NCBI GenBank assembly: GCA_964510165.1
Contig: CAZEBC010000048.1
Location: 1-23,153, forward strand
DNA: 23,153 bases
DNA from: an uncultured bacterium
GTDB taxonomy: Bacteria > Abyssobacteria > SURF-5
Direction of reading: 5' to 3'
Below the pieces are notes generated by a model, which had not been told where the DNA came from, did not search any database, and worked only from the letters and a program-made list of their open reading frames with translations. Shown piece after piece: positions 700 to 19,124 of this stretch (positions are counted from its first letter, which is position 1; each line of letters begins with the position of its first letter). The position numbers were made by a program, and so were the translations under genes.

Positions 700-1425
700 A
701 TGAAAGGAATCGTATTGGCGGGCGGATTGGGAACGCGCCTCTACCCCCTCACCAAAGTCACCAACAAGCACCTGCTCCCCATATACAACAAGCCCATGAT
801 CTTCTATCCGATCGAGACTCTCGTGGAGGCGGGCATCACGGACATTCTTCTGGTGACGGGCGGCAACAGCGCCGGCGACTTCCTCAGGCTCATCGGCAAC
901 GGAAAGGAATTCGGGCTCAAGCACATAAACTACACCTATCAGGAAGGCGAGGGAGGCATCGCCGAGGCCCTCGGGCTTGCCGAGCATTTTGCAGCCGGGG
1001 ACATGATAACGGTTATCCTCGGAGACAACATCATCGAGGGCTCGATTCGAAAGGCCGTCAAGGACTTCGAGCGGCAGAAATCGGGCGCAAAGATATTCCT
1101 TAAGGAAGTTCCTGACCCCGAGCGCTTTGGAGTGGCGATACTCGAGGGGGACAAGGTCATACGGATCGATGAGAAGCCGAAGCAGCCAGAGTCGAGCTAT
1201 GCCGTGGTCGGAATATACATGTACGACGGCACGGTGTTTGACATCATAAAGACCCTCCGACCCTCAGATCGCGGTGAACTCGAAATCACCGACGTCAATA
1301 ACGCCTACATTCAGCGTGGCGCGATGACCTATGACATCCTCAACGGCTGGTGGACCGACGCCGGCACCTTCCCTTCCCTGGTCCGCGCCAACAAGCTTGT
1401 GGCAAAACGATACGGCGTCGAATAG
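700..1425 (+). CDS. rmlA: glucose-1-phosphate thymidylyltransferase-like sugar-phosphate nucleotidyltransferase (short RmlA/SpsI type)
   Basis: GIVLAGGLGTRLYPLT..NKHLLPIYNKPMI, LGDN, EKP, RGELEITD, WTDAGT motifs; SD AAAGGA upstream; 241 aa. Confidence 0.9.
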   Translation: MKGIVLAGGLGTRLYPLTKVTNKHLLPIYNKPMIFYPIETLVEAGITDILLVTGGNSAGDFLRLIGNGKEFGLKHINYTYQEGEGGIAEALGLAEHFAAGDMITVILGDNIIEGSIRKAVKDFERQKSGAKIFLKEVPDPERFGVAILEGDKVIRIDEKPKQPESSYAVVGIYMYDGTVFDIIKTLRPSDRGELEITDVNNAYIQRGAMTYDILNGWWTDAGTFPSLVRANKLVAKRYGVE

Positions 1426-2399: not shown

Positions 2400-4475
2400 C
2401 TACTCGCCCCCACCGTCTCGGAGGGAGCGGGCAAACGCGCGCGCGCTCGTGTTCCAGGCGTCGCGCTGAAGATACTCTTCGAAAATCCTGACCGCTTCCT
2501 CGCGCCTTCCCTGCTCTTTGTGGGCGAGCGCAAGCAGGGCGTATGCCTCAATGTTGAGGTCGGAGAATCGCGCCGCCTGCTTCAAGGCGGTTTCGGCTTC
2601 CAGGTACATCTTGCGATGAAGGTAAAGCCCCCCCTGGTTTGAGCGGCACTTTGAATACTTTGCCCGGGCGGCGGCATCCGTGAGGAAAGCCCTGTCCTTC
2701 ATCACTCGCGCTTCAAGAGATTCCCAATAGGCAAAATCCGCCCTGACGGCCTCCGGCGGCAGCGACTCGACCCGCTCGCCTTTCAGTTCCATTATCAATC
2801 CCGAAGGAATCGCGAAATCGCGAACCCACTCGATCGGCAGGCCCTCGTCGTAATAGACGGGTCTTCTTGTGATGGCCCGCTGGTACAGTTTGAACAGCAG
2901 GTATCCGTTGACGCGGTTGACGTTGTGGGCGCCGCGCACCCCGTCTCCGGCAGTAGTCGGATGATAGGCTTGCTCATACTCTTCGGAAGACAGGAATTCC
3001 AGGTCAGGAGCATTTCGCGACGCCTCGGCGGCGTAGCTTGGATCGCCGAGTCGGTTGACGCTCAGGATTGTAATGTCCGGCCTTCTTCCCTGTACCCACT
3101 TCAGATACATCGGGATCGAGTATGCCGAGTCGGTGCCTGCAAATAACACCGCGCCTTCTGGGAGACGGTTGATCAGTGCGATGCCGTACGTGCGGCCATA
3201 ACCCTTCCCGCGCATTCCGCAATCGGCCCAATGCGCGAAGACATTGCTTATGGGCACGATGAGCCAGAGCGTCGCGAATACGGCGACCGGGATCGGTTCG
3301 CGCCTGAGGCGCCGGGAGGCCCTCAACCCCAGCAAGCCGATTGTCCCGATTCCGTATCCCACCCATATCGAAAGCACTATGGAAGAAGGAATGAAATATA
3401 TCTTCAGCAGGTTCTGCGCATTCAGGTCGAGTTCCGTGTTCGCGATGACAACCAGCAATACTCCCCCGCATACGAATGCGGCCGCCGTAAACGCCAGCCA
3501 GATTGCGCCCTCCCTCCGCGTAAACCACAGGCAGAGCAGGGCCGGAAGCAGCAACACGATGGGGATGGACTCTCTTGCAAGTGACGCGAAAAAGAATCTC
3601 ACCTGTCCCGCGACGGTCGCCAGCGACCGGATCATCTCAAGATTTCGGTATTGTTGCCGAGTGACCAGGAACCGGAAGTTCTCCCACGTGCTCGGGTCGC
3701 CCCAGTTCAGAGGCGGATTCGCAGCCGCTCTGATCGGCAGATACAGATACAGCGCGAGCCCCAAAAGGAACAGGAAGACACAACCGAGCATGACGCGGAC
3801 GGACAATACAATCCGTGGCTTCTTCAGCATGCAATAGAGCACGATTGCGGGCGCCAGCAGGAGCAGCGTCTGATGGTTCGCCTGACCCGCCCCAAACAGG
3901 AATGCGGATGCAAACAGCAGGCCGCGCCTGTCGGTTGACTCGCCCCACAGCGCCAGCAAGAGCAGGATCGCGCAGATCAGCAGATTATTGAGCGCATACA
4001 CTTCCGCCACAACAGCCTGCTGCCAGAAGGTGGGCGAAAACGCGAGACAGAGCGATGCCGTCGCCGCAGCCGAGCCCGTGATCATCCCCGCCACCGGCGA
4101 GTCCATCGTTTCCCGCGTCACTATTCCGGCGCACACCGTTGGCACGGTGCGAGATATGACAAGCGCCAGCAGTCCCACCGCCGCCGCGTCGAAAATGGCC
4201 GACATCAAGTTGAGCCGGTACGCCACCGTGCCTATCGGAAGCAACGAGAAACACTTTCCCAGGAGGAGCCATAAGGGATAGCCCGGCGGATGTGCGACTC
4301 CAAGGGTATACGCAGCGGTTATGAGTTCGCCGGAATCGCCGAATGTGATGGTGGGCGCCAGCGTGAACAGATAGACCGAGAGAGCGGCGACCGAAGCGAA
4401 CATCGCGGGCAGCGCCTCGCGCGCGCGAAGGTCGCCCGGAAACGACCGGACCCTGTCGACATAGCTTTCTCTCAT
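2400..4475 (-). CDS. DUF2723 / GT117 (TMEM260-like) GT-C membrane glycosyltransferase with C-terminal TPR-like repeats
   Basis: Signature TLAPTITFGDSGELITAAYTLGVAHPPGYPLW, AEVY, YLYLPIRA..NPPLNWGDP; many TM helices; C-terminal TPR-like helices; start moved to ATG 4475, which overlaps the upstream TGA (ATGA). Confidence 0.88.
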   Translation of the reverse strand: MRESYVDRVRSFPGDLRAREALPAMFASVAALSVYLFTLAPTITFGDSGELITAAYTLGVAHPPGYPLWLLLGKCFSLLPIGTVAYRLNLMSAIFDAAAVGLLALVISRTVPTVCAGIVTRETMDSPVAGMITGSAAATASLCLAFSPTFWQQAVVAEVYALNNLLICAILLLLALWGESTDRRGLLFASAFLFGAGQANHQTLLLLAPAIVLYCMLKKPRIVLSVRVMLGCVFLFLLGLALYLYLPIRAAANPPLNWGDPSTWENFRFLVTRQQYRNLEMIRSLATVAGQVRFFFASLARESIPIVLLLPALLCLWFTRREGAIWLAFTAAAFVCGGVLLVVIANTELDLNAQNLLKIYFIPSSIVLSIWVGYGIGTIGLLGLRASRRLRREPIPVAVFATLWLIVPISNVFAHWADCGMRGKGYGRTYGIALINRLPEGAVLFAGTDSAYSIPMYLKWVQGRRPDITILSVNRLGDPSYAAEASRNAPDLEFLSSEEYEQAYHPTTAGDGVRGAHNVNRVNGYLLFKLYQRAITRRPVYYDEGLPIEWVRDFAIPSGLIMELKGERVESLPPEAVRADFAYWESLEARVMKDRAFLTDAAARAKYSKCRSNQGGLYLHRKMYLEAETALKQAARFSDLNIEAYALLALAHKEQGRREEAVRIFEEYLQRDAWNTSARAFARSLRDGGGE

Positions 4476-5935
4476 TTTCGGAAGGGAGGAAATTTCAAGA
4501 AGCTCCGTCGAAAGTTGTACCACATGTCCTTATGCGACGGCATCTGTATCAGCCGGGGGACCACCAGGAAAACCAGGAACGATTTCAGAAGCCACTTGTA
4601 CCAGCCGCGCTCGAGCAGCCTCTCGATGGCGCCCGGCTTGAGAAACGGGATAAGCGTGAACAACGCCTGAATCCTCGCAAGCGGCTCGATGTCCTTCACC
4701 GACCCGCCCTTGAAGTAGTCGCGTTCCACGCCTTCCTCGATGGCCTCGACGTCTTCCTCCGTCAAGAGGTTGTGTGAACGCGCAAGCTCTATGATCTCGG
4801 TCCCCGGATAATAACGCATCCAGAAGCAGTTTATGTGGTCGGGCCTCACCCGCGAGTACTGACGCACCGCCTCGATGTAATCGGACTCCTCATGGAGCGG
4901 CAGGCCGAAGATGTGGTCAACGTCGAGATAGATGCCGGCGCGTTTGACCGCACGGCACGCCCTGATGATCTGCTCGTTGGTCTCGTATCGGTGACAGACC
5001 TTGCGTCTAAGCTCTTCATTCCACGTTTGCACTCCGAGCTGGATTCGCTTGCAGCCCGCATCGGCGAGCATGGAGGCCATGTCGTAATCCACGTGTCTCG
5101 CGCTGCCGATGCACCTGAAGATGGTCCCGATCTCCTTCTTATACAGCGCCAGGAACTCCGTGAGCCATCTCCGGTCGCTGACGAAATCGTCGTCCACGAA
5201 GAAGACCATCTTGAATGGATACTTACTCTTCGCCTGGATGAGTTCCTCGATGACGTTCCCCACGCTTCGCTTCCGCAGATAATTCTTCACCCCGTAGGTC
5301 TTATTGATAAGATTGTTGCAGCAGTAGGTGCAGGAATACGGGCATCCCCGGCTGGTCAGCGCGTAATAGATTTCGCCGTACACCGGCACCTTCTCTATGA
5401 ATATGGATTTGTCCGGGAAGGGCAGCGAGTCAATGTCGGCAATCGGCGGACGCACCGGATTCCGCGCCACCTCGCCGTTCATCTTGCACCACACGTTGGG
5501 TATACGAGACGGATTGTTGCCGCGCTCGAGCCCGCTCACGAGGTCAAGCAGCGCATACTCGCTCTCGCCGACGACCACATAATCCACAAATGGGCGCTGA
5601 ATGACCCGATGCGGCAGCGCCGTGACGTGGATTCCTCCAAACACCACGGGAACATCTCGGATGGCCTTGAATTCCTCCGCCACCGCGCAGGCCCACTGGT
5701 AGTAGTCGGACACCACCGAGAACGCGACGACATCGGGCTTTTCGGCCGCGATGCGCGCCGCCACTTTCGCGGGCCGGTTCGCGCGTCTCCAGGCGCCCGG
5801 TATGTTGATGTATTCGCCATCCAGCAGATAGGATTCATACGCGAGCGAGGTCTGATGGCCGTGCTGTCGGAGGACGGCGGAAAGGTACTCGATCGCGAGG
5901 GACTCGGCCTCCTTGTAAACGAAAACCACTTTCAT
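4472..5935 (-). CDS. cobalamin (B12)-binding radical SAM protein (class B methyltransferase-like)
   Basis: N-terminal B12-binding domain (SLAIEYLSAVL, KPDVVAFS, VVFGGIHVT, VVGESE) and RGCPYSCTYC CxxxCxxC motif, FVDDDF, IFGLP. Confidence 0.92.
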   Translation of the reverse strand: MKVVFVYKEAESLAIEYLSAVLRQHGHQTSLAYESYLLDGEYINIPGAWRRANRPAKVAARIAAEKPDVVAFSVVSDYYQWACAVAEEFKAIRDVPVVFGGIHVTALPHRVIQRPFVDYVVVGESEYALLDLVSGLERGNNPSRIPNVWCKMNGEVARNPVRPPIADIDSLPFPDKSIFIEKVPVYGEIYYALTSRGCPYSCTYCCNNLINKTYGVKNYLRKRSVGNVIEELIQAKSKYPFKMVFFVDDDFVSDRRWLTEFLALYKKEIGTIFRCIGSARHVDYDMASMLADAGCKRIQLGVQTWNEELRRKVCHRYETNEQIIRACRAVKRAGIYLDVDHIFGLPLHEESDYIEAVRQYSRVRPDHINCFWMRYYPGTEIIELARSHNLLTEEDVEAIEEGVERDYFKGGSVKDIEPLARIQALFTLIPFLKPGAIERLLERGWYKWLLKSFLVFLVVPRLIQMPSHKDMWYNFRRSFLKFPPFRK

Positions 5936-5948
5936 ATCTCGACGAGGA

Positions 5949-7025
5949 TCAGGTGACCTTCTCCCACTGAGCCGATTCCCTTACTTTCAACGTGAGCACG
6001 TCCAGCCACCCCAGCACGATGCCGTATTGTTGCATGATGGGGAAATACTGGCCCGTCAGCGCGACGAGCGGAAGCCCGACCATGCCGATGGCCGCGGCAA
6101 CCTTCCAATTCCACCACGCCAGATACGCTATCACGTACAAATACATCAACGGCGAGAAAATGGCCAGCACCCGCCTCACCGGATACACCAGAAGGCCGAA
6201 CCACCCGTAGCGAGGATTGAGCAGCATATGGATGTAAAGGAAGAGCGTCGGGATGGTCAGCGCCACTCGCCGGCGTATCTGTTTCAGTTCGGAACTGAAA
6301 GTTTGCGGGCTCGTCTCATATACGAGCGCGTTTGCGTCAATCACCACCCGATATCCCTTCGAACGAAGCCGGAGGGTGATCTCCAGGTCGTCCACCACGG
6401 CATTGGATGGGATTTCCGGAAGCAAGCTCTTGCGGAACGCCATCAGTTTGCCGTCAAGGCTGATTGCGCTGTCGAGTATCCCCTCCAAGGTGCGCAGTTC
6501 CCAGTCGGACTTGTGGTATTTCAGCTTGCTCCTGCCGAAGAACGAGCGCGTTTCCTCAAGCACCGCTTTTCCGCCCACCGCGCCTATGTCCGCGCTCGCG
6601 AAGCACGTGACGATGGACCCGATCGCCTCTCGCTTCAGCCGCGTATCGGCGTCCGTGACCGCGATAATCTCGGATTTCGCGTGGCGCACACCCTCGTTGA
6701 TGGCGTTTATCTTGCCCCTGCGCGAGTCGAGCACTCTCACAGGATACGACTCCGCGATCGTGCGGGTCCGGTCTTCCGAGGAATTGTCCACTATCAGGAT
6801 TTCAAGCTTGTCCGAAGGATAATCGAGGGCCAGAAGGTCCTCGATCTTGCGCGCGATGTTCTTCTCTTCATTGAAGGCCGGGACAACCACTGTTACCGAC
6901 GGCGTCTGTTCGGTCCGAGCGAGCGCTTTCCCTCGCGTCAGATACCTGAGCAGCGCCCCATAGCCGAGCACAAGGAACACCAGATACGCGAGCGACAGAT
7001 AGAAAAGGACAGCCCAGATGCTCAT
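5949..7025 (-). CDS. GT2 glycosyltransferase, CESA/PgaC-like membrane type
   Basis: N-terminal TM, VVVPAFNEE, IVDNSSED, TDAD (DxD), DD, QIRRR (QxxRW variant), C-terminal TM helices. Confidence 0.9.
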   Translation of the reverse strand: MSIWAVLFYLSLAYLVFLVLGYGALLRYLTRGKALARTEQTPSVTVVVPAFNEEKNIARKIEDLLALDYPSDKLEILIVDNSSEDRTRTIAESYPVRVLDSRRGKINAINEGVRHAKSEIIAVTDADTRLKREAIGSIVTCFASADIGAVGGKAVLEETRSFFGRSKLKYHKSDWELRTLEGILDSAISLDGKLMAFRKSLLPEIPSNAVVDDLEITLRLRSKGYRVVIDANALVYETSPQTFSSELKQIRRRVALTIPTLFLYIHMLLNPRYGWFGLLVYPVRRVLAIFSPLMYLYVIAYLAWWNWKVAAAIGMVGLPLVALTGQYFPIMQQYGIVLGWLDVLTLKVRESAQWEKVT

Positions 7026-7029
7026 AGAT

Positions 7030-8109
7030 TCACTTCGCGGTCAGAAACCGTCTTGCCATCGCCAGAGCCAAACGTGTGGGCTGAAACAATATATTAATGG
7101 TTTGATAGCAAGGATGATAACAATAACATGAGCCGTCCGCCACAGCCTTTCTCGCGGCTCGCGACGCCTCGGTCCGGACCAGTGAGTCATAGTTGTAATC
7201 GTGTTCTCTGAACGATCCGAATGGCTCAAGCATTTCGCACAGCGAGGCTTCGCCCGAGGCCCCCAGCACGAGGGTGGCGCGGTCCGCAAGGCAGCGAATT
7301 GTCTGCCTTCGCTCGCGCCGGATCCGGAAAAACTCATCGTAGTAATAATCCATCACCGCCGCATAGGTGGCCTTCAACAACCTGTGGTGTCTTCGCAGCC
7401 TCTCATAGCCGCCATAATGCCGCAGCACGGCCTTGATCTTCCCTGCAAGTTCGGGAAGCGCCTCTTCGGGCGGGAGCGTGACCGAATCGCTGGCTGGAGC
7501 GCCCCGGATGAAATCGAACGTGTGAACATCGGGCCTGAGCCGCTCCACGAAATCCCTGATTTCGTCGAATCGAGTGTAATTCAGATTGCTTAAGACCGTA
7601 TGGAACTTCACCGATAGGTTGGGAAGCCTGCTCTTCAATGGCTTGACCGACTCCCACGTCTTCATCAAGGCGTCGAAGTTGCCCGGGCATCCTCTCAGCC
7701 TGTCGTGCTCCTCACCAATGCCGTCTATCGAAAGCACAAGGTTCATCGTGGACTCGCCGATCACGCCGCATATGCGCTCTGTCATGGCGGTTATCCGCTC
7801 GGGCAACAACGCATTGGTTGGCAGGGTCACGTGCCGGACCCCGTTGGTCTGGCAGAAAATGAACACGATCTCCGGCAGGTCGCTTCGGAGAGAAGGCTCG
7901 CCGCCGGAGAGCAGAAGCCAGGGAAATCCCGGCAGTGACGCCGTGATTTTTCGTATCTCGCCCAGGTCGAGTTCAGGCGTGGCGACAAGCTCTCTTTTCC
8001 AACTGAAACAGGAAAGACATCGGGAATTGCATCTTCTTGTTACGTGGTAGATGACCTGAAAGAGGCCGGCCTTTCTGCGGAATCGAATATAATCGGTCAG
8101 CGCGCTCAT
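7030..8109 (-). CDS. radical SAM protein with C-terminal twitch/SPASM-like auxiliary Fe-S domain
   Basis: CNSRCLSC motif, SGGEP, LPTNA, LSIDG..HDRLRG; C-terminal C-x17-C and CxCxxxC; start moved to ATG 8109 (ATGA overlap with upstream gene). Confidence 0.88.
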   Translation of the reverse strand: MSALTDYIRFRRKAGLFQVIYHVTRRCNSRCLSCFSWKRELVATPELDLGEIRKITASLPGFPWLLLSGGEPSLRSDLPEIVFIFCQTNGVRHVTLPTNALLPERITAMTERICGVIGESTMNLVLSIDGIGEEHDRLRGCPGNFDALMKTWESVKPLKSRLPNLSVKFHTVLSNLNYTRFDEIRDFVERLRPDVHTFDFIRGAPASDSVTLPPEEALPELAGKIKAVLRHYGGYERLRRHHRLLKATYAAVMDYYYDEFFRIRRERRQTIRCLADRATLVLGASGEASLCEMLEPFGSFREHDYNYDSLVRTEASRAARKAVADGSCYCYHPCYQTINILFQPTRLALAMARRFLTAK

Positions 8110-8822
8110 TTTTTGTCGAACATGTGTTTGAACTTCAACGCCCACATGCGCCAGACCGCCTCCCATACAATCCCGTACGTTATCTTCGACTCCCCGATCT
8201 TGCGGTCAACAAATACAATGGATACTTCCTTGATGCGAAATCCCCTCTTCCAGACCATGTAGCTGGTCTCTATCTGGAACGAATATCCGTTGGAATGGAT
8301 TCTGTCGAGGTCTAGCTGCTGGAGCAATTCCCTCCGGAAACACTTGTAACCCGCGGTGACGTCGGTAAAGGGCAGCCCTGTGATTGTGCGGGCGTACCAA
8401 TTGCCTATCTTGCTTATGATCAGGCGGTTCAGAGGCCAATTCACAATACTGATGCCGTTCAGGTACCGCGATCCCACCACAAGATCGGCCTCCTGCATCG
8501 CCGCCAGAAAGTCCGGAATATATTTGGGATCGTGCGAAAAGTCGGCGTCCATCTCGAATACATACTTGGCGTCGGTGTGCTGGATGGCGTATTTGAATCC
8601 GTCAATGTACGCCGAGCCAAGCCCCATTCTCTCAGGCCGGTGCAGAACGCGAACCCTGCCCGTTTCACGCGCGAACTTGTCGGCCAACTGCCCCGTGCCG
8701 TCGGAGGAGTTGTCGTCCACTACCAGGACATGAAGGTCATCGTCCACGGCCAGTACGATCGGCACCAGCTTTTCAAGGTTCTCCCGTTCATTCAAGGTTG
8801 GTATGACTACAAGAGCTTTCAT
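8106..8822 (-). CDS. polyprenol-monophosphomannose synthase-like GT2 (Ppm1/DPM1 type)
   Basis: VIPTLNERENL, VVDDNSSDGTG, GLGSAY..GF, EMDADFSHDP, GSRY, DVTAGYKCFRR, GYSFQIE, FVDRKIGESK; start at ATG 8822. Confidence 0.9.
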   Translation of the reverse strand: MKALVVIPTLNERENLEKLVPIVLAVDDDLHVLVVDDNSSDGTGQLADKFARETGRVRVLHRPERMGLGSAYIDGFKYAIQHTDAKYVFEMDADFSHDPKYIPDFLAAMQEADLVVGSRYLNGISIVNWPLNRLIISKIGNWYARTITGLPFTDVTAGYKCFRRELLQQLDLDRIHSNGYSFQIETSYMVWKRGFRIKEVSIVFVDRKIGESKITYGIVWEAVWRMWALKFKHMFDKK

Positions 8823-8905
8823 GAAATTTCCGTGGCGTTTATGGCCTTTCCCTGTCTGCGCGCCGCGCTCAGGGCCGGACACAGACCGGCATTACGGCAA
8901 CGCTT

Positions 8906-8914
8906 ATTATATCA
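8906..8914 (-). promoter_or_regulatory. internal extended -10 promoter for the 8822->2400 sub-operon
   Basis: Minus strand reads TG-A-TATAAT (perfect extended -10) in the 102-nt gap; no clear -35. Confidence 0.6.
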
Positions 8915-8924
8915 CATCGAGGAA

Positions 8925-9503
8925 TTATATCGGCCCCACGTCCAGACGCCGCTTGTCTACCCGCAGAATGAAGCACACCTCGCCGGCAGGCAGCCAGTGA
9001 CAGAAGAACATGTCATATACAGAGGGAAAGAGGTTGATGATGTGACTTATCCAGTTCAGCGCCTTGAAGCTCGAGAAAACAAACCACCTCTTTTCCATCA
9101 CAAGCGGAAAGCCCGAGCCGTAATTGGTCGAGTTGCGCAAAAGCTTCCATTTCTCATAGATTCTCGGCTTCCCGACGATCTTGGTGTATCCATCAAAGGT
9201 GCGCCAGCCGAACGGTATCTTGTGATCGGGATCGCCGAACCACTTGGATGACGGAAAATAGCTCGCGCATACCCGGATTCTACCGCCTTCCTTCGTTATC
9301 CTCACCAGTTCCATGACAGTCGCATGGAAATTCCTCAGATGAGCAAGAACGTGTTCGCAAACTATCTCGTCAAAAGAGTCCTCCTTGAATGGAAACGGTG
9401 TATGGTTCAGGTCGGCGATGACGTTCACGCCTTCATACCGGATGATGTCCACATTGACGTGACCCTTGTGAACCACGCTGCCGCAGCCCAGGTTAAGCTT
9501 CAT
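8925..9503 (-). CDS. class I SAM-dependent methyltransferase (Methyltransf_11-like, glycan-cluster type)
   Basis: MKLNLGCG motif I, NVD, ADLN..PFPFKEDSFDEI..HVLAH, RITKEGGRI, DPDH; start moved to ATG 9503 (ATGA overlap with YfhO stop). Confidence 0.88.
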   Translation of the reverse strand: MKLNLGCGSVVHKGHVNVDIIRYEGVNVIADLNHTPFPFKEDSFDEIVCEHVLAHLRNFHATVMELVRITKEGGRIRVCASYFPSSKWFGDPDHKIPFGWRTFDGYTKIVGKPRIYEKWKLLRNSTNYGSGFPLVMEKRWFVFSSFKALNWISHIINLFPSVYDMFFCHWLPAGEVCFILRVDKRRLDVGPI

Positions 9504-11890
9504 TGAATCTTGCGCGTCCTCCAAAATGCCGCATTCATTCGCCTCGCGCCCATATAGCCCGCAGCAAAGACAAATGCCAACCATCCCGCGAGCGTAACCA
9601 CGAAGCCCCACACCGCCGGCTCGTACCTAAATAATATCATATGCGCGCCTCCAGGAACCAGAATCGCGCGCATCAAGTAGTTCGCGGGCAGGATTGGCGT
9701 CTCCTCTCCGTCAATAAACGCGCGCCAATCCGCATCCACGAAATCCTGGAGCACCAATGCGGACGGCCGGTCGCCCGAAACCTCAAAGCTGACCCGGTGA
9801 GGCGAGCAAGAGAATTTCGCCAAGCTCCAGACCGGGGCTTCTCCGTCCATCTCGACGAAAACCCTCGGCACAGGCGCCGCCCGCGTAAGGCTCGCATTCC
9901 TGTGCTCTGACTCCTCCAGCAACACGGTTCGTTTCAAATCAAATCCGGGTTTCCCCAAGAGTTCGATGGTATCTTCCCGTTTTGCCGTTCTGATATCGTT
10001 TGTGAGAAAGACCCTCGGAAGGGCGTCGTCGAGTTCATAGATGTACACTTCTTCGGGGGTCTGCGGCGGTCTCAGGACGGCGGCAAGCCTTGCCTGAAAG
10101 CCCCTAGGAAGTCTGGTCGCGGACAATATGTACTTGACATTGAAGAGATGAAAGAGCTTCTCATGCTCCAGTCGGCCCGCCCGCACCGCCTCGAATATCT
10201 CCGAATATCTGCCCGGTCTCCTCGACATGATGGCGTCCATTGTGTCGATGCCGGCGTAGGGGAGGACCTCCGTCACAAGGTATCTCAGGTACGGCGTCTC
10301 GCTCCATAGCTTCACGCGATACGGCCCGGGCTGTGACTGAAGCCATTTCACCGTCTCATCCTCGACGTATCTCTCCCGATAATCGTAATATGAAATGAAC
10401 GGGGACGCATTGGCGATGAGGTCCCCGGCCAGCAGAGCCACGACAAACGCGGGAACAGCCAAAGACGCGCCAGACAGAACCGCCCGCTTCGTCCCCGCTG
10501 CCACAAGGACCGAGGCCACCGCCAGAACCGCAAGCTTGAAGGTTACGACAGAGACGGTCTTCATGTAAGCGCTGCCCGTCACAAGCGGAGTCAAATATGC
10601 AATCACCGCCATGCCGGCGAAGAAGGCCGCTATCCCAATAAATATCCTGCGATTGTCTGATGCGGGCGCCGTTCGCCAGTAATCGGCCCCCATTCCCGCG
10701 AGTATCGAAACGCAAAGACTGGTTATGAAGAGCCACTTGTGCGGGTTGCGAAACCCCTCCATCAATGGGAGGGCATAGATCATGCGGTAAGGCAGAGGAA
10801 AATATCGTCCAAACGAGATCAAGACAGCCGCAACCGCCGCACACGCGAAGAAGTACCGTCGTCTCCCGTTCGACAGAAGGCCCAGGAATGCGAACAGGAG
10901 CCCGACTATGCCAAGGTAGTTGTCCGAGAGCCTCGCGTCTCTCCCCGTCAGCGGACCTTCACCCTGGATATTGCCGCTGAATGCCAGCGTTGGAACCTTT
11001 CTCGGCGAGAACGAAAACTGCGTGGCGAAGTCCCAGTTCTCTTCCTCCGTGTGCACGCCCACGTTCTCCTGACGCTTGGACAGGGAATAATAGCTGCAAA
11101 ACACTTCAGCGGCGAACACGATCCCCACGAAAGCCGCCAGCGCGGCCCAACCCAACCGCTTTGTCGAAACTGCCAGCGCTTCGGGAAGCAGCGAACCGCG
11201 CCGGGCTGACCACAGTCCGTGCGCGGCGTCCCAGACGAAATATGCCGCCGCCAGGAGACATACATAGTACGCGACTTGGATTTCGCCCCCGAGAAACTGA
11301 AGCCCGAGAAAGGCGCCAGCCAGCGCCGAGTTCCTGGCGCGTCGCGGCTCATCATTCAATATCCGGCTGAAGAACAACAAAAACAGCGGTACCCAGCACG
11401 CGGTGTCAAAGACCCAGAGCACGCCCTGCCGCGCGCTTGTCAGCAGGCCATTGCCCAGTTGAAATGAAAGCCCGCCCACCAACGCGCCGAACCTGCTCAC
11501 CTTCCGGTCTCGCAGGAACGCGAACATGAACGCCCCCGCAAGAAAGGTGTCGAGCATGAATTGAAACCCGTGAAACCGCTGGGGAGGCAGGAGCAGCATC
11601 ATCGGCAAGCTGTGTGAAAGAAACTGAAACTGCTGCGGTATTCCCGCAAGAAAGTGAGGAAACCACCTCGGCACAAACAGCCAATTCGTCCATGTCTGAA
11701 CAAACATGGGTACCCAGAGGGAGGAATCGGTTCCATAAATCGTGTTGGCGGGATTCCAGGCACCTCGGAAGACGAATGCGCTCGTGAGCGCATAGAGCAG
11801 GATGCAGGCGGTCGTGAGAAGATGAGCGCGAGTTGCCGCCTCCTCTGATGGGGCGCATCCTACCGCCGCTTCCGTCGCGTTCGACGTCAT
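9500..11890 (-). CDS. YfhO-family GT-C membrane glycosyltransferase
   Basis: Polytopic 796 aa; GTD near N-terminus, WFPHFLAGIP, FRNPHKW, FNVKYIL, ALPRVFL, C-terminal WRAFIDGEETPILPANYLMRAILVPGGAHMILFRYEP followed by a TM helix. Confidence 0.88.
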   Translation of the reverse strand: MTSNATEAAVGCAPSEEAATRAHLLTTACILLYALTSAFVFRGAWNPANTIYGTDSSLWVPMFVQTWTNWLFVPRWFPHFLAGIPQQFQFLSHSLPMMLLLPPQRFHGFQFMLDTFLAGAFMFAFLRDRKVSRFGALVGGLSFQLGNGLLTSARQGVLWVFDTACWVPLFLLFFSRILNDEPRRARNSALAGAFLGLQFLGGEIQVAYYVCLLAAAYFVWDAAHGLWSARRGSLLPEALAVSTKRLGWAALAAFVGIVFAAEVFCSYYSLSKRQENVGVHTEEENWDFATQFSFSPRKVPTLAFSGNIQGEGPLTGRDARLSDNYLGIVGLLFAFLGLLSNGRRRYFFACAAVAAVLISFGRYFPLPYRMIYALPLMEGFRNPHKWLFITSLCVSILAGMGADYWRTAPASDNRRIFIGIAAFFAGMAVIAYLTPLVTGSAYMKTVSVVTFKLAVLAVASVLVAAGTKRAVLSGASLAVPAFVVALLAGDLIANASPFISYYDYRERYVEDETVKWLQSQPGPYRVKLWSETPYLRYLVTEVLPYAGIDTMDAIMSRRPGRYSEIFEAVRAGRLEHEKLFHLFNVKYILSATRLPRGFQARLAAVLRPPQTPEEVYIYELDDALPRVFLTNDIRTAKREDTIELLGKPGFDLKRTVLLEESEHRNASLTRAAPVPRVFVEMDGEAPVWSLAKFSCSPHRVSFEVSGDRPSALVLQDFVDADWRAFIDGEETPILPANYLMRAILVPGGAHMILFRYEPAVWGFVVTLAGWLAFVFAAGYMGARRMNAAFWRTRKIQ

Positions 11891-13080
11891 CCCGCCACCC
11901 TCCAGCGCTCAAGGGTTTGTTCGAACGCGCGGTCAAAGACCAGGTCCCAATCGTACTGTTTCCCGAGAGCGGCAGCCCTGGCACGAAGTTCCGGAAAGGC
12001 GTCCGGCGCAGACAAGAGTCTCGCAAGCGCGGCAGTGAGGTTCTCGACATCCGGCTCGATTGCGATCCCCGCCCCGAAAGCCTCTATCGTCTCCGCAATG
12101 CGCGGGACGCGGCTGATGACAACCGGAACGCCAGCGGCCAGGTATAGCTTCACTTTGCCGGGGTCTGCGTATCGCTTGAATGTCTCGTCGGTCTTCACAT
12201 AAGGCGCCACGCCGACAGCGGCTTCGGACACAAGCTCGGCGACCTTCGCGTCGTCTTCTATGAATCCCATGAATTCAACCGCGTCCGAAACCCTCTTCTC
12301 GGCGGCGAGACGCTTGAGCGCACCCGATTCCACGCCGTCCCCAATCACGCGCAAGCGCGCACCGGGGAATCTTCGCTTAATTGTCGGCAGACATTCTATC
12401 ATCAGGTGCAGGCCTTGCTCGTGCCTGAGACTTCCGAGAAACACGATCAAGTTCGGGTCCGCCTTGTCCGATGGGAGCCGGGGCATTTCGCCATATCTGG
12501 CGCCGAGCGGAACCTCGATCTGCGGCGCGCAACGCCCCGGTTGGATTCCATCCTTAATCCGGGCCTCCTCCATCGCAGCCGATACATTCCAGACCGCGTC
12601 GCTCCCGTAACAGCACCGCCTATCGAGAAACCGATAGAGGCTTTGACCGGCGCGGCTCGAAAACCGGTGAGGCGCATAATCTATCACGTAATAAACCACG
12701 CGCTCGACTGCTCCGAGTCGCCTCAGGATAAGGCCGGTATTCGCATTGAGATTGTCCACCCCAAAATATAACTGGAACCGGACTCCTTTCCGAAGAAGGT
12801 ACCACAACGTGCAAATCACGTCTTTCACAAAGAACACCGGAGAAGGACCCTTCACAAGCGGGGCCAGGATTTCTTCCGTTTGTTTGCCCTTCTCGTAGAC
12901 CGTCACTGCCGTGTTAATCGGTACGCCTCTCGCGTCCGGGAACGGGTGGCTCACATAAACGACCGTTTTGGCGCGCCGCCGCAAGTACCGCAGTAGCTCC
13001 TGCTCCGCTCCTCCTGTCGGAGTATACGTGTGCTTCACTATCGCTATCGCACTGTCCGACAACCAGCCCCGAAGGTCCAT
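11887..13080 (-). CDS. GT4 (GT-B fold) glycosyltransferase
   Basis: IVFLGSL..EQG, LRVIGDG, EFMGFI, GKVKLYLAAGVPVVIS, YDW C-terminus; ATGA overlap with downstream gene. Confidence 0.88.
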   Translation of the reverse strand: MDLRGWLSDSAIAIVKHTYTPTGGAEQELLRYLRRRAKTVVYVSHPFPDARGVPINTAVTVYEKGKQTEEILAPLVKGPSPVFFVKDVICTLWYLLRKGVRFQLYFGVDNLNANTGLILRRLGAVERVVYYVIDYAPHRFSSRAGQSLYRFLDRRCCYGSDAVWNVSAAMEEARIKDGIQPGRCAPQIEVPLGARYGEMPRLPSDKADPNLIVFLGSLRHEQGLHLMIECLPTIKRRFPGARLRVIGDGVESGALKRLAAEKRVSDAVEFMGFIEDDAKVAELVSEAAVGVAPYVKTDETFKRYADPGKVKLYLAAGVPVVISRVPRIAETIEAFGAGIAIEPDVENLTAALARLLSAPDAFPELRARAAALGKQYDWDLVFDRAFEQTLERWRVAG

Positions 13081-13084
13081 CTCG

Positions 13085-14482
13085 TCATCCCGCCGCCCGT
13101 TTCCAAATGCTCAGGAACGACCTCAGCCCCATCAGGTTCGCCTTCACATCCTGCCATGTGCGAATCCGGGCAAGCCGTTTCAAAATGTAACGAGGCCTGA
13201 GGTAAAAACCGCATACCGCTATCCTGTGATATTTCTTCACCAGTTCGGGCGGAAGCGAATTATCAGAATACGTCGGCCTGGCGTAATCGAACCGTGCGAG
13301 GTCTTCCTGAACGAACGTTCCGGCGCGCCCCGCCGCCTGCGCCAGCTCCGTCCCCGGCAACGGCATATAGATCGAAAACTCGGCAACGTCTGAATCGAGC
13401 TCGCGCGAGAGCCGAATCGTTTTCTTCATGCTTTCCTCGGTCTCGCCCGGCACGCCCAGCATGTAGTTGGCGATGGTGGATATCCCAACGTCGTGGGTGA
13501 GCCGTATGTTTTCCTTTATCTGTCTTAACGTAAGCCCTTTCTTGAGAACCTCTTTCAATATACGCTCGTCACCCGACTCGATCCCGTATGAAATGACGAG
13601 ACAGCCGGAATCCTTCATCATCTCCAGAACCGGCCGGTTCACCCTGTCCAGCCTGGTGCCGCATATCCATTTAAGGCGCAGCTCCTTGAGCATCGCACAC
13701 AGACCCTCGAGCCAGGCCACATCGAACGTGAGAGTATCGTCGTAGAAGTACACGCCCCTGATGCCGTACTGGGCAATGAGCGCCTCGAGTTCCTTTCGTA
13801 TGTTTGGGATCGAGCGCAGCCTCATTTTGCGGCCGTGCACCAGCTCGGACGCGCAAAACGCGCACCGGTAGGGGCACCCCCGCGAGGCGATGACCGGCAG
13901 CGAAGGCTGAGGCAATGACCACTTGATGCGGTCGTGGCCGGACGCCTTGAAATATGACGCCACATCCACGAGATGTCGCGCTGGAAAAGGCAGTGCGTCG
14001 AGGTCTTGGATAAAACTTGGCGGCGGCCCATGCACAATTCCGTCATGCGTCCTGACGAACACGCCCGGCGCCGTGGCGGCGACCTCGAGTTTCGGATAGG
14101 CCTTCAAGAGATTGACCATCAGAAGCTCGCCCTCGCCCGTCGCCGCGATGTCGGCCTGGGAGTCATTTAACGTTCGTTCGGGAGAGACCGACGGATGGAT
14201 ACCCCCCAGCACAACCCATGAAGTCGGCAGGCGCTCCTTCACCCGACCTGCAATCGCGCGCGCATGTGGATACAGTGGAGTCGTGCAGCTTACCCCTACA
14301 ACCTCAGGTCTCCATCGTTCGATTATCTCATCAAGCTGCGAGCGGGACGGGTCAAACCCCGCGTCATGCACACGGGTTTCGATGCCCGCCTCTTCAAGCG
14401 CGGCAGCCACATAGAGCAGCCCGAGCGGCGGATTCGCCGGGATTTGCGGGTCGGGGTTTACGAGTAAGACCTTGGGTTTCAT
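13085..14482 (-). CDS. cobalamin (B12)-binding radical SAM protein (class B methyltransferase-like)
   Basis: VLLVNP..PPLGLLYVAAAL, VVGVS, VLGGIHPS, GEGE, SRGCPYRCAFC, FYDDT, GIESG, MLGVPGET, PLPGT. Confidence 0.93.
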   Translation of the reverse strand: MKPKVLLVNPDPQIPANPPLGLLYVAAALEEAGIETRVHDAGFDPSRSQLDEIIERWRPEVVGVSCTTPLYPHARAIAGRVKERLPTSWVVLGGIHPSVSPERTLNDSQADIAATGEGELLMVNLLKAYPKLEVAATAPGVFVRTHDGIVHGPPPSFIQDLDALPFPARHLVDVASYFKASGHDRIKWSLPQPSLPVIASRGCPYRCAFCASELVHGRKMRLRSIPNIRKELEALIAQYGIRGVYFYDDTLTFDVAWLEGLCAMLKELRLKWICGTRLDRVNRPVLEMMKDSGCLVISYGIESGDERILKEVLKKGLTLRQIKENIRLTHDVGISTIANYMLGVPGETEESMKKTIRLSRELDSDVAEFSIYMPLPGTELAQAAGRAGTFVQEDLARFDYARPTYSDNSLPPELVKKYHRIAVCGFYLRPRYILKRLARIRTWQDVKANLMGLRSFLSIWKRAAG

Positions 14483-14499
14483 TCACCTATCCGAATCTT

Positions 14500-14606
14500 C
14501 CCCTCACCCCGACCCTCTCCCACTGGGAGAGGGCGCCACGCCCGAAGACGAGAAGGCCGAAGCTGAACCCCAACCCCCTCCAGCTGGGAGAGGGCAGGGT
14601 GAGGGG
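14500..14606. repeat. inverted pair of palindromic intergenic repeats (BoxC-like CCCTCACCC..CCCTCTCCC..GGGAGAGGG element)
   Basis: Copy 1 at 14501-14535 CCCTCACCCCGACCCTCTCCCACTGGGAGAGGGCG; a more degenerate inverted copy at 14574-14606; a third copy at 19041-19075. Confidence 0.8.
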
Positions 14607-14614
14607 TTTCGGTT

Positions 14615-15625
14615 TCACTGATGCCAGTTGGTTCTGTCGAATTCCGACGTCACAAAAAAGGACTTGATCGTGGTTCCCCCATACGTGAGGAGCGTGAGCC
14701 AGCACGCTATCGGATGGATGAACCAGGCCGGGTCATTCTTTCGGGTGTAACCATAAACAGATTGTATCAGCAGTGGGAAAACCAGGAGACAACACACGAT
14801 GAACTTGATGTAGCCCCACCGATATCTCTGATGAGGATACGTGCGCTGGCCAAGCTTTCTGTAATGGAGGAAATCCTTTATCCTGCGTCCTTGCTTCCGG
14901 GCAAACGTCTTCAGGTCGGGGCAGTACAGATGGACGATGCCCTTCTTCACGAAGCCCGCACGGGTGTGTCCCCGGCTCACCAGTTGATGGATCACGTCAA
15001 TATCGAAATAGTATGCGTCGAGCTTGACCTCTTGCACCACGGCCCTGCGGATAAGACATCCGTTGGCGCCCATCGTGGGTATGCAATCCTTGGTGAGGAC
15101 GACCTCGTAGAAATCGCCATGGTCCGTCATCTCGAGAGGAAGCCCCGTCCACTTCCCCGTGAGCGTGCTGAGGCGGTCGTAGTTACCGAGGAAAAGATGG
15201 ATCGGATCGTTCATGCCGATCAGAGAGCAGTACCGGTCAATGACCGAATCGGTCGGACGATACGTCAATTCGTAGCACTCCGAACAGAAAATCTCGGGGT
15301 TCTCGAACGGAAGCACCATCTTCCTGAGCCAATCGGTTCCCTCGAGGATATTGTCGCTGTCTATAAATGCGAGCAGTTCGCCCTTGGCCTCCCGTATTCC
15401 GACCGTCTTGCCCGCCTCGCCCGTCCTGAGGGGGTTCGAGAGCACCTTCGCCACTCCCTCTCTCGATGCGATCGCGAGCGTGTCATCGGTCGAGCCGGCA
15501 TCAACTATTATTATCTCGATCTTTTCGGACGGATATTCCTGCGCCTTTATGCTGTGGAGGCATTCTTCGAGCGAGCGGCAGGAGTTGTAGGTTGGAATGA
15601 CGATGCTTATGGAGGGCGTGTCCAT
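14615..15625 (-). CDS. GT2 glycosyltransferase
   Basis: SISIVIPTYNS, IVDAGSTDDT, AFIDSDN (DxD), C-terminal TM helices; start moved to ATG 15625. Confidence 0.9.
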   Translation of the reverse strand: MDTPSISIVIPTYNSCRSLEECLHSIKAQEYPSEKIEIIIVDAGSTDDTLAIASREGVAKVLSNPLRTGEAGKTVGIREAKGELLAFIDSDNILEGTDWLRKMVLPFENPEIFCSECYELTYRPTDSVIDRYCSLIGMNDPIHLFLGNYDRLSTLTGKWTGLPLEMTDHGDFYEVVLTKDCIPTMGANGCLIRRAVVQEVKLDAYYFDIDVIHQLVSRGHTRAGFVKKGIVHLYCPDLKTFARKQGRRIKDFLHYRKLGQRTYPHQRYRWGYIKFIVCCLLVFPLLIQSVYGYTRKNDPAWFIHPIACWLTLLTYGGTTIKSFFVTSEFDRTNWHQ

Positions 15626-15636
15626 CCCGCGCCCCC

Positions 15637-16692
15637 TTACCTGTCCAGGCGCTTCAGCATCAGCCCCCTGATGAACGCGCAGCCGTACACTATGTGCGTC
15701 GCCATTATGCCCACTGAGCCGAGGATGGCCACGTCCAGACGGCTGGCGGGCATGACCGAAATGAAAGCCACCCCGAAATAACAAGCCAATCCGAGCAGCA
15801 GGATTACGGCAACCAGGTGAGAGAACAAGGACAGGATCGCGCCAAGCGCCAACACAACCACCACAATGCTCGGCAGGAAATAGAATATCCGCCTGGACGT
15901 TTCCGGAAACATCTTCGCGAAATAACCCCGGTGCACGCCCACGTTCGCTATCTGTTTGAGATGGTCGAAGAACAGCGAGCGCCGGTGATGGAAGACGATG
16001 ACCTCGGGCCTGTACAGTATCTTCTTGCCAAGCTTCACAAGCTCAAGACACAACTTGGTATCTTCCCCGCCGTAGAAGTTCGAGGTGAACCCGCCGATGT
16101 GTTTGAGCACCTCAGTTCTTACCATCAGGTTGAAGGCCGGGAAATCGTCCACCTCGCGCGGTTTCCGCTGGATGAACCGATGCAAGGTCTGCCCGCTGCC
16201 GAGCGGCGAGGTGTACACCGCCCCACTTGCCTGCTCGAGCAGACTGTCCTCCGGCGGCGTGATCCCCGGACCACCTACAGCAGCCACCTCGGGATTGTCG
16301 AAAAACGGGACCGCGCTGCGCAGCCAATCGGGCCGGGGATAGGCGTCGTCATCAATAAAGGCGCATATCTCTCCGGTCGCATTCTGGATTCCGAGGTTCC
16401 TCTTCTCTGCCGGGCCGGTCAGTTGCTTGCGCGTGCTGATGATATTTACAAGGCCCGGTTTCTCCTGCCGCTTGAGCTCTGAAAAGTAGGGATTCGTCGC
16501 CGCATTCAGCGTCGGCTCGTCGGCCACAATGAGTATCTCGAAGTTCGGATATTCAAGGTTGCGGATGCTGGAGAAATCCTTGAGAAATCGCGCGCTGCAT
16601 GTGTGCAGCGGTACTATCACCGAGAATTTCGCCACCTCGCCGCCGTGCCTTGCCGCCGACTTCCTCTGACTATCGGTCCTGGTCTCTGTCAT
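15637..16692 (-). CDS. GT2 glycosyltransferase with C-terminal TM helices
   Basis: FSVIVP, GPAEKRNLG..ATGEICAFIDDDAYP, GGF..GEDTKLC, HHRR, three C-terminal hydrophobic segments; start could be slightly downstream. Confidence 0.88.
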   Translation of the reverse strand: MTETRTDSQRKSAARHGGEVAKFSVIVPLHTCSARFLKDFSSIRNLEYPNFEILIVADEPTLNAATNPYFSELKRQEKPGLVNIISTRKQLTGPAEKRNLGIQNATGEICAFIDDDAYPRPDWLRSAVPFFDNPEVAAVGGPGITPPEDSLLEQASGAVYTSPLGSGQTLHRFIQRKPREVDDFPAFNLMVRTEVLKHIGGFTSNFYGGEDTKLCLELVKLGKKILYRPEVIVFHHRRSLFFDHLKQIANVGVHRGYFAKMFPETSRRIFYFLPSIVVVVLALGAILSLFSHLVAVILLLGLACYFGVAFISVMPASRLDVAILGSVGIMATHIVYGCAFIRGLMLKRLDR

Positions 16693-17434: not shown

Positions 17435-17490
17435 GCCCCCCAACGCCCCCCGGACGCATTCTCAAAGTCGTATCCGCCTCGGGATACACG

Positions 17491-19040: not shown

Positions 19041-19075
19041 CGCCCTCTCCCTGTGGGAGAGGGTTGGGGTGAGGG
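19041..19075 (-). repeat. third copy of the BoxC-like palindromic repeat
   Basis: Reverse complement CCCTCACCCCAACCCTCTCCCACAGGGAGAGGGCG matches 14501-14535 at 33/35 nt. Confidence 0.8.
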
Positions 19076-19124
19076 AAAAACACCCGACAGCACTGAGAAC
19101 ATGCGGACCCGAGGAGGAACCAGC

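Follow-up and report, generated by a model that had tools for sequence, protein, structure and literature searches.

The gene cluster and its distal unit

The stretch of DNA analysed here (the window) is the complete 23,153-base contig CAZEBC010000048.1 (C48) of a 4.17-Mb, 97% complete metagenome-assembled genome (G000), and the theme of this report is a set of five minus-strand genes in it (2400-8822) that opens with a putative polyprenol-phosphate sugar synthase and closes with a relative of the human glycosyltransferase TMEM260. The source is an uncultured bacterium of the deep biosphere, and proteins closely homologous to those of the window carry the source names Candidatus Abyssubacteria/Abyssobacteria. 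The five genes end one row of 13 minus-strand genes running from 18870 to 2400 and headed by a Wzx-type flippase gene, a cluster that most likely loads a sugar on a membrane lipid carrier, alters it by radical enzymes, and attaches it outside the membrane via the TMEM260 relative.

The first gene of the distal unit (8106-8822, 238 aa, here Ppm) encodes a Dpm1/Ppm1-like glycosyltransferase of family GT2 (PF00535, 1.6e-29, 103 bits), and is followed by genes for a twitch/SPASM-type radical S-adenosylmethionine (SAM) enzyme (7030-8109, 359 aa; PF04055, 3e-12), a membrane GT2 denoted GT2d (5949-7025, 358 aa; PF13641, PF00535, PF13632 and PF13506), an accessory B12-binding radical SAM protein, B12 enzyme 2 (4472-5935, 487 aa; PF02310 and PF04055), and a 691-aa TMEM260-like enzyme of the GT-C fold (2400-4475; PF11028), with a transmembrane GT-C domain, a Rossmann-like domain and a short tetratricopeptide repeat (TPR) region. 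The initial annotation had described five coupled genes that begin with a polyprenol-phosphate-mannose synthase-like gene and end with a DUF2723/GT117 protein, and both points stand: Pfam families and best solved relatives agree on the first and last genes, and the junctions comprise ATGA overlaps between the Ppm and radical SAM genes and between the B12 and GT-C genes, with gaps of 4 nt (radical SAM/GT2d) and 13 nt (GT2d/B12) between the others. Three start codons were revised from the longest open reading frame (ORF), to ATG 8822 for Ppm, ATG 8109 for the radical SAM enzyme, where two relatives show a stop codon within the upstream extension and thereby confirm this start, and ATG 4475 for the GT-C.

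The upstream part of the row (all minus strand) starts behind a promoter-like site, P1 (18946-18975, TTGAAA-18-TAGAAT), at the cluster head, with the flippase gene (17545-18870), whose 441-aa product has about 11 hydrophobic stretches by hydropathy, matches NCBIfam SpoVB at 1.6e-7 and is assigned to the MOP/Wzx type; its orthologue in a class-level relative, G010, matches PF01943 (Polysacc_synt). A second promoter-like site from the same two-hexamer scan, P2 (17491-17519, TTGATT-17-TAGAAT with TG), precedes three GT2 genes assigned by Pfam and NCBIfam, GT2a (16670-17443), GT2b (15637-16692) and GT2c (14615-15784), so placed that the flippase gene sits alone between P1 and P2; both motifs also occur in two related loci (L009 and L011). 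GT2a is a second small GT2 resembling polyprenol-phosphate sugar synthases, with PgfS as its top NCBIfam match. Then come the genes for B12-binding radical SAM enzyme 1 (13085-14482; Pfam), a GT4 glycosyltransferase (11887-13080; Pfam), a 796-aa YfhO-family GT-C (9500-11890; PF09586) and a SAM-dependent methyltransferase (8925-9503), whose start shares an ATGA overlap with the YfhO stop, and finally a gap of about 100 nt before the five-gene unit.

The TMEM260-like GT-C

Against PF11028 the last gene product scores 147.8 bits (3.9e-43; cut-off 24.2) over profile positions 1-175 of 179, or 150.8 bits in the whole-genome scan, and its residues 40-510 align with the structure of human TMEM260 (PDB 9rql; also 9rqm and 9rqn) at E 7e-38. 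TMEM260 is a CAZy GT117 enzyme that O-mannosylates IPT domains of proteins in the endoplasmic reticulum. A recent preprint names D52 and H67 as residues of its sugar-recognition motif, R264 and Y267 as donor-loop residues, R355 and, as the catalytic base, D441 of the Rossmann-like domain, and has the TPR hold an extended peptide and a single mannose pass to protein from its donor Dol-P-Man (dolichyl phosphate mannose) (bioRxiv 10.64898/2026.03.17.711096). Five of these residues have conserved equivalents among 58 aligned homologues of the window enzyme: D47 (=D52) and H62 (=H67) in all 58, R273 (=R264) in 53, Y276 (=Y267) in 55 and D449 (=D441, the catalytic base) in 52. R355 has no counterpart in the pairwise alignment of the window GT-C with 9rql, and of a possible equivalent to the asparagine ladder of the human TPR a hand count in the window enzyme shows only one conserved Asn, N613, at the expected repeat place.

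An AlphaFold (AF2) model of the GT-C (pLDDT 92.1, pTM 0.93) has a helical membrane domain to about residue 419, an alpha/beta part with five strands between 443 and 564, and helical TPR repeats at 574-686. Its nearest folds are the protein O-mannosyltransferases (PMTs) Pmt1-Pmt2 (Z 24.9) and Pmt4 (24.1), followed by ArnT (23.7) and then AglB, AftB, ALG12 and PglB, the GT-C neighbours spanning Z 21-25 and the TPR neighbours Z 8-9; TMEM260 entries are absent from the fold libraries, and the likeness to 9rql rests on the sequence alignment and the described domain order. By its profile match, its key residues and the three-part build predicted for it, the protein is a member of the TMEM260-like/GT117 family, as had been proposed. 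It differs from the human enzyme in being bacterial and periplasm-facing, in lacking a match for R355, and in sharing its cluster with genes for its own donor synthase, for radical SAM enzymes and for a flippase.

PF11028 proteins are present in 181 of 401 sampled prokaryotic genomes, and we found no bacterial PF11028/GT117 member with an assigned substrate or function in the literature searched, whose coverage lies outside subscription journals. Across the whole genome G000 there are five genes of the TMEM260-like type and several that encode Dpm1-like GT2s.

Putative donor synthase, membrane GT2 and radical SAM enzymes

The best solved relative of Ppm, over residues 1-228, is the Dol-P-Man synthase of P. 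furiosus (5mlz, E 2e-26), followed by ArnC (4e-9), and hydropathy predicts no membrane helix in the product. Since its scores remain below every curated NCBIfam equivalog cut-off (AglJ 71.6 against 325, PpgS 64.8 against 370, dolichyl-phosphate hexose transferase 50 against 375), we assign it no sugar specificity. Across 41 genomes counted by hand, 25 have both a PF11028 protein and a close Dpm1-like synthase, 3 the GT-C only, 5 the synthase only and 8 neither. GT2d, with hydrophobic stretches at 3-21 and 286-304, has the mannosyltransferase PcManGT (6yv7/6yv9) as best solved relative (E 1.5e-21) and by this match resembles a minimal cellulose-synthase-like GT2.

In the radical SAM enzyme at 7030-8109, the CX3CX2C motif (C27, C31, C34) and C273, C291, C328 and C330 are invariant in 25 of 25 sequences, and C334 is kept in at least 90%. 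Its model (pLDDT 88.5) is nearest to SkfB (Z 22.4, 281 residues aligned) and BlsE (Z 21.7, 282 aligned), then SuiB (20.1) and anSME (19.2), with DesII (16.4) and BtrN (13.8) also retrieved. The cluster motif, the conserved C-terminal cysteines and the SkfB/BlsE-like predicted fold together make "twitch-like" a fair label, in a general sense, as the score against NCBIfam N_Twi_rSAM (NF033640) is 45 bits against a cut-off of 170 and places the enzyme outside that named subfamily. A Protein Atlas look-up returned generic radical SAM/SPASM clusters only, and a related-locus search with the radical SAM alignment returned only the family itself and one Coatesbacteria contig that ends at the gene. 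B12 enzyme 2 scores above cut-off with PF02310 (68.3 bits) and PF04055 (76 bits), matches TsrM, AprD4 and TokK weakly, and is 26% identical to B12 enzyme 1, whose top NCBIfam match, HpnJ, scores 177.7 bits, below the cut-off of 577.6. With all NCBIfam scores so far below curated cut-offs, we assign no reaction to the B12 enzymes or the twitch enzyme.

The twitch family occurs in 83 of the 401 sampled genomes, and B12-radical SAM genes lie near the twitch gene at four loci outside the family (L032, L036, L037 and L045). In other phyla (L036, L037, L040-L043, L045 and L046) a row recurs in which the twitch/SPASM radical SAM enzyme stands between a membrane GT2 (about 335 aa) and a small GT2 (about 240 aa), and which at times also includes PMT_2 GT-Cs, FAD amine-oxidase-like or GLF-like proteins, B12-radical SAM enzymes, sugar nucleotidyltransferases or sulfatase-family proteins.

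A probable internal promoter and a deletion scar

The distal unit is preceded by an extended -10 box, TGATATAAT, at 8914-8906 on the minus strand, 11 nt past the TAA stop of the methyltransferase gene (8927-8925) and here named P3. The perfect TG-A-TATAAT noticed earlier at this place is the only such match in the window: TGNTATAAT occurs once, against an expectation of 0.15, with at least one match in 14 of 100 shuffles. A box stands at the same place, just past the methyltransferase stop, in the loci of six relatives (G001, G003, G004, G005, G006 and G007; in G003 the identity of the gene ahead of it is unconfirmed), five of them with an exact TGNTATAAT and one with TGATAGAAT, making six of seven exact with the window included, and the non-coding bases around it vary. 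Genome-wide, 101 of 163 TGNTATAAT matches fall outside long ORFs, in DNA that makes up 9.7% of the genome, an approximately six-fold enrichment, and 69 of these 101 stand 10-250 nt upstream of an ORF on the same strand. This distribution indicates that extended -10 promoters are in use by the organism and, together with the conservation of the box across loci, makes P3 probably a real promoter.

It would be very unlikely, on this evidence, that the box does not work as a promoter and that the five genes are just the tail of one long transcript, though several findings point that way. No -35 match accompanies the box, which is why the two-hexamer scan does not list it (that scan finds 8 sites in the window, against 9.1 +/- 3.5 in shuffles); a match in a window of this size has a 14% chance, which makes it weak evidence by itself; the window scan found no terminator-like site between the upstream genes and the box; and no RNA run is among the public sequencing runs listed as carrying the locus, which counts against the main reading given below as well. 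Against a non-functional box stand its retention in non-coding DNA in seven of seven loci despite varying flanks, the enrichment of its motif outside ORFs, and its association with a gene that has moved elsewhere in the genome, as follows.

All seven relatives' loci that cover the site (L009, L010, L011, L012, L014, L015 and L016) have a GT4 gene of 377 aa about 35 nt past the box, and only then Ppm. The window lacks this gene and retains an 83-nt untranslated leader between box and Ppm (8823-8905), which, from this comparison, is its deletion scar. The surrounding gap of about 100 nt (8823-8924) is spanned without indels by contigs from three DNA runs of three studies (X1 record 2, 8610-10795; X3 record 13, 8118-9340; X2 records 7 and 8), one of which runs may be the source sample itself, and these contigs show the junction to be real. 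An Rfam search of the window matched no family, which argues against a riboswitch in the leader. An orthologue of the missing gene (69% identity) is found on contig C1 of the same genome (C1:3122-5733), with its own TGATATAAT at C1:3122, about 100 nt upstream, so that the box appears to have accompanied the relocated gene; a sulfatase-family gene comes next, and an IS200-like transposase gene lies nearby (C1:6772-7650).

That the synthase comes first behind P3, as noticed for the window, is not the general layout, since the GT4 gene takes that position in all of the relatives' loci that cover the site. The description of the five genes as a separately promoted sub-operon holds in part: the box is conserved, but it is internal to a 13-gene cluster and has no terminator-like site ahead. 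From the sequence comparisons, P3 probably serves the five genes as a promoter inside the cluster, which has at least three, and they do not form an isolated operon. The cluster of the class-level relative G010 contains no TGnTAnAAT, from which P3 would be specific to the family.

A proposed lipid-carrier glycosylation module

We put at roughly 55% the probability that the five genes, as the promoter-distal end of an envelope-glycan cluster of 13 genes in a Candidatus Abyssubacteria-like bacterium, act as a glycosylation module of the lipid-carrier, three-component type. By homology, the soluble Dpm1-like GT2 would make a polyprenol-phosphate hexose at the cytoplasmic face, and the twitch radical SAM enzyme, with the B12-radical SAM enzyme where present, would tailor the sugar or its precursor, while the membrane GT2 might add a second sugar or help to handle the lipid-linked intermediate. 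The donor would then be flipped across the membrane, for which the MOP/Wzx protein of the cluster is the only candidate seen, and the TMEM260-like GT-C, its donor-binding and catalytic residues intact, would pass the sugar on in the periplasm. The acceptor, in the weakest step of the scheme, would be the hydroxyl of a Ser/Thr residue in some extended envelope-protein segment, by analogy with TMEM260. P3 would add an internal start to read-through from the two upstream promoters.

This scheme shares with the known three-component systems (GtrA/GtrB/GtrC, CsbB/GtcA/YfhO, GtrB/PgtC2, PgfS/PgfM1) the combination of a GT2 polyprenol-phosphate sugar synthase with an extracytoplasmic GT-C, and the cluster additionally includes a YfhO-family GT-C and a small GT2 with PgfS as top match. 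It differs from them in the PF11028 family of its GT-C, in a synthase that lacks a membrane anchor, in the radical SAM and membrane GT2 genes between synthase and GT-C, and in its flippase, as no GtrA-type protein (PF04138) was matched in the 97% complete genome, in a search whose control was positive in 8 of 14 reference genomes. Alteration of a lipid-linked sugar after the synthase step and before GT-C transfer has precedents in ArnC/ArnD/ArnT, which uses a deformylase, and DprE1/DprE2, which uses a flavin/NADH epimerase pair; the candidates in the window are, by contrast, radical SAM enzymes that would act on a lipid-linked or nucleotide sugar. With sugar-modifying radical SAM enzymes the twitch enzyme shares the twitch-type fold of BlsE, DesII and BtrN, and the B12 enzymes are linked to them by AprD4, among their solved relatives, and to the hopanoid enzyme HpnJ by their top NCBIfam match, but the nearest fold of the twitch enzyme, SkfB, works on a peptide. 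To our knowledge, radical SAM tailoring of a lipid-carried sugar is a step described for no three-component glycosylation system, and no paper describing a cassette with radical SAM enzymes between such a synthase and a GT-C was found in the literature within the same coverage.

Conservation carries much of the case. Orthologous clusters occur in all nine other genomes of the family, with GT-C identities of 58-66%, and their constant genes are those for the flippase, GT2a-c, GT4, methyltransferase, twitch radical SAM enzyme, GT2d and GT-C, while B12 enzyme 1 and YfhO are variable (each in four of six loci). In 8 of 10 family genomes Ppm is the direct neighbour of the radical SAM gene, and in G002 a contig end separates the two. 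Each family genome has in addition a second, unlinked Dpm1-like paralogue, 46-50% identical. The class-level relative G010 (GT-C identity 34%) has the order hemW, Wzx, GT2a, GT2b, GT2c, GT4, an 843-aa ORF with no Pfam match, GT4, methyltransferase, Ppm, GT2d, GT-C.

Other observations weigh against the proposed module, or at least against a fixed and general form of it. The G010 cluster contains no radical SAM gene, and because its architecture is otherwise the same, the radical enzymes would thus be later additions to an older Wzx/glycosyltransferase/GT-C cluster. B12 enzyme 2, which the initial annotation had listed among the five genes, is accessory, being found in three of the nine loci that cover its junction. 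The locus of G008 has GT4, radical SAM, GT2d and GT-C genes with no linked synthase, and the only close synthase homologue of that genome (49% identical) lies on another contig. Beyond the family, 4 of 15 genomes (G010, G012, G026 and G025) have the closest synthase homologues no more than 15 kb from a PF11028 gene, and in the other 11 these homologues lie elsewhere, so that the conserved linkage of Ppm1-like and DUF2723 genes that the initial annotation requires is upheld in 8 of 10 family genomes and in G010, but not in G008 or as a rule beyond the family. The lack of a GtrA-type match counts on the same side, and as to mannose in particular, the RmlA-like neighbour of the cluster is by NCBIfam of the glucose-1-phosphate type, not a mannose-1-phosphate guanylyltransferase.

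On the reading of a radical-tailored O-glycosylation pathway, weighed below, its core cassette of small GT2, twitch radical SAM enzyme, membrane GT2 and GT-C would extend to many uncultured phyla. A link of the twitch enzyme to sugars is supported by its surroundings: among the 20 best loci of the twitch family outside the window's family, 11 have a GT2 gene directly adjacent, with membrane GT2, radical SAM enzyme and small GT2 frequently following one another, and a PMT_2 GT-C stands in the same row at L036 and L043, two of the 10 loci scanned with Pfam. The other nine have no adjacent GT2, among them the three closest homologues (38-40% identity), two of which face a GT9 heptosyltransferase gene, and these three tell against the proposed module. 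Outside the window's class, 54 genomes have both the twitch family and PF11028, 18 the twitch family only, 116 PF11028 only and 202 neither, counts that ignore the relatedness of the genomes and are weak evidence.

A compact, promoter-defined set of donor synthase, tailoring enzymes and transferase could be co-expressed to reveal the role of a bacterial TMEM260 relative and to learn if sugars on a lipid carrier are tailored by radical SAM enzymes. Natural comparisons are at hand in relatives that differ in the linked synthase, YfhO, the GT4 gene or the B12 enzyme.

Protein, glycan or lipid as possible acceptor

By analogy, we give about even odds that the acceptor is a protein, through Ser/Thr of an envelope protein. 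The full combination, in which a donor radical-tailored on polyprenol phosphate, or just before loading, is attached to envelope-protein Ser/Thr by a bacterial GT117 enzyme, is rather unlikely; if true, bacteria would have a radical-tailored pathway of protein O-glycosylation of the TMEM260 type.

The evidence for protein as the acceptor is indirect and has three sources. Contig C7 of the same genome has three tandem TMEM260-like paralogues with long TPRs (C7:24966-33424; L006:10967-19425). They have pilB-pilT-pilS-pilR-pilC on one side and the gene of a type IV pilin on the other, and the genes ahead of them encode an epimerase/dehydratase, an acetyltransferase of the hexapeptide type and a small GT2. 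A PF11028 triplet between pilC and the pilin gene recurs in all four genomes examined (G000, G005, G006 and G010), among whose relatives the small GT2 is found in G006 and G010 and the acetyltransferase in G006 only, and this is a candidate pilin glycosylation locus. It is this locus, not the window, that resembles TfpW of Pseudomonas aeruginosa, a GT-C of another family encoded beside the pilin gene that is reported to arabinosylate pilin from a polyprenol-linked sugar (bioRxiv 10.1101/2020.04.19.049825). The second source is the streptococcal pairs GtrB/PgtC2 and PgfS/PgfM1, each a YfhO-family GT-C with a GtrB/PgfS-type GT2, which are reported to O-glycosylate Ser/Thr-rich disordered protein regions (PMC12041528). 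Third, the two nearest solved folds of the window GT-C are protein O-mannosyltransferases.

Two proteins may be mentioned in this context. A 1452-aa protein with five TIG/IPT matches is encoded on contig C65 (14230-15768), unlinked to the cluster, and is a lead only by analogy with the acceptors of TMEM260. In the window itself, a plus-strand gene (82-669) encodes a SPOR-domain protein whose single membrane helix is N-terminal and whose linker (residues ~40-118), rich in Pro, Ser and Ala, is probably disordered; it adjoins the RmlA-like gene and the cluster in the window, L011 and L013, and is a possible candidate acceptor.

The principal alternative, less probable than a protein acceptor yet deserving serious attention, is that the GT-C decorates a glycan or lipid, the upstream genes (GT2a-c, GT4, Wzx) making and flipping a lipid-linked glycan and the Ppm/GT-C pair adding a tailored side-branch sugar in the periplasm to this glycan or another envelope polymer. 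Models for such side branches are GtrABC on O-antigen, CsbB/YfhO on lipoteichoic acid and ArnC/ArnT on lipid A. Much of the cluster would agree with this: the GT-C gene is always last in a Wzx-headed row, in which the flippase and five or six cytoplasmic glycosyltransferases fit a lipid-linked oligosaccharide; no gene for a candidate acceptor protein lies in the cluster; and ArnT, which modifies lipid A, is a structural neighbour tied with the PMTs (Z 23.7). TPR domains, moreover, occur in polysaccharide export proteins too. Similar gene sets in unrelated genomes fit as well, G026 (L053) combining Wzx, a PF11028 protein, GT2s, a methyltransferase, RmlD and a Dpm1-like GT2, and G012 (L052) matching it except for Wzx, of which the stretch scanned has no gene. 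All these points tell against a protein acceptor. In the opposite direction, Pfam and NCBIfam searches of the window matched neither a phosphoglycosyl transferase for initiation nor a Wzy polymerase nor a WaaL ligase; paralogues elsewhere in this genome adjoin pilin genes; and the only characterised member of the family acts on protein, with the catalytic base that positions the peptide hydroxyl kept in 52 of 58 homologues. In L052 and L053 a TMEM260-like gene of 880-970 aa stands with genes for a methyltransferase, RmlD, a GT2 that carries a fused CoA_binding_3 domain and a Dpm1-like GT2; a GT4 gene joins them in L052, and in L053 a Wzx gene and one more GT2 do.

A different role for the GT-C, as terminal en-bloc transferase (O-oligosaccharyltransferase or ligase) of the Wzx-flipped oligosaccharide, with the Dpm1-like GT2s starting the lipid-linked glycan as AglJ does in Haloferax, strikes us as improbable, more so than side-branch decoration. 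AglJ is the top NCBIfam match of Ppm (E 6.8e-20, below cut-off), the fold search with the GT-C also brings up PglB, AglB and STT3 (Z 21-23), and the cluster offers no other candidate for a last transfer, given that YfhO is absent from two of six loci and a PF11028 gene is in every locus. Yet TMEM260 transfers one mannose from Dol-P-Man, and the residues that grip the monosaccharide are all kept in the window enzyme; the synthase, furthermore, shares the promoter unit of the GT-C, an arrangement usual for three-component systems that transfer monosaccharides.

Flanking genes and minor features

Downstream of the cluster and convergent with it lies an RmlA-like sugar-1-phosphate nucleotidyltransferase gene (700-1425, plus strand; Pfam, NCBIfam), which has a counterpart beside the GT-C gene in eight of nine relatives' loci, the ninth stopping short of the site. 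A hemerythrin-domain gene (1772-2317, plus) stands between the two in the window, and in relatives they are directly adjacent. On the other flank, the window has a DUF2961 gene divergent from the cluster (19053-20129, plus) and beside it a gene for an 879-aa VWA-FHA-DUF6982 protein (20429-23068, plus), whereas relatives have lepA-lepB-hemW ahead of the cluster instead; hemW-lepB-lepA form this flank in both loci examined for it (L009 and L011). Within the cluster, the interval ahead of the variable B12 enzyme 1 gene (14482-14615) contains the GC-rich palindromes CCCTCTCCCAG...TGGGAGAGGG, present twice between CCCCTCACCC/GGGTGAGGGG arms, which by their sequence look like an element of the REP/MITE type.

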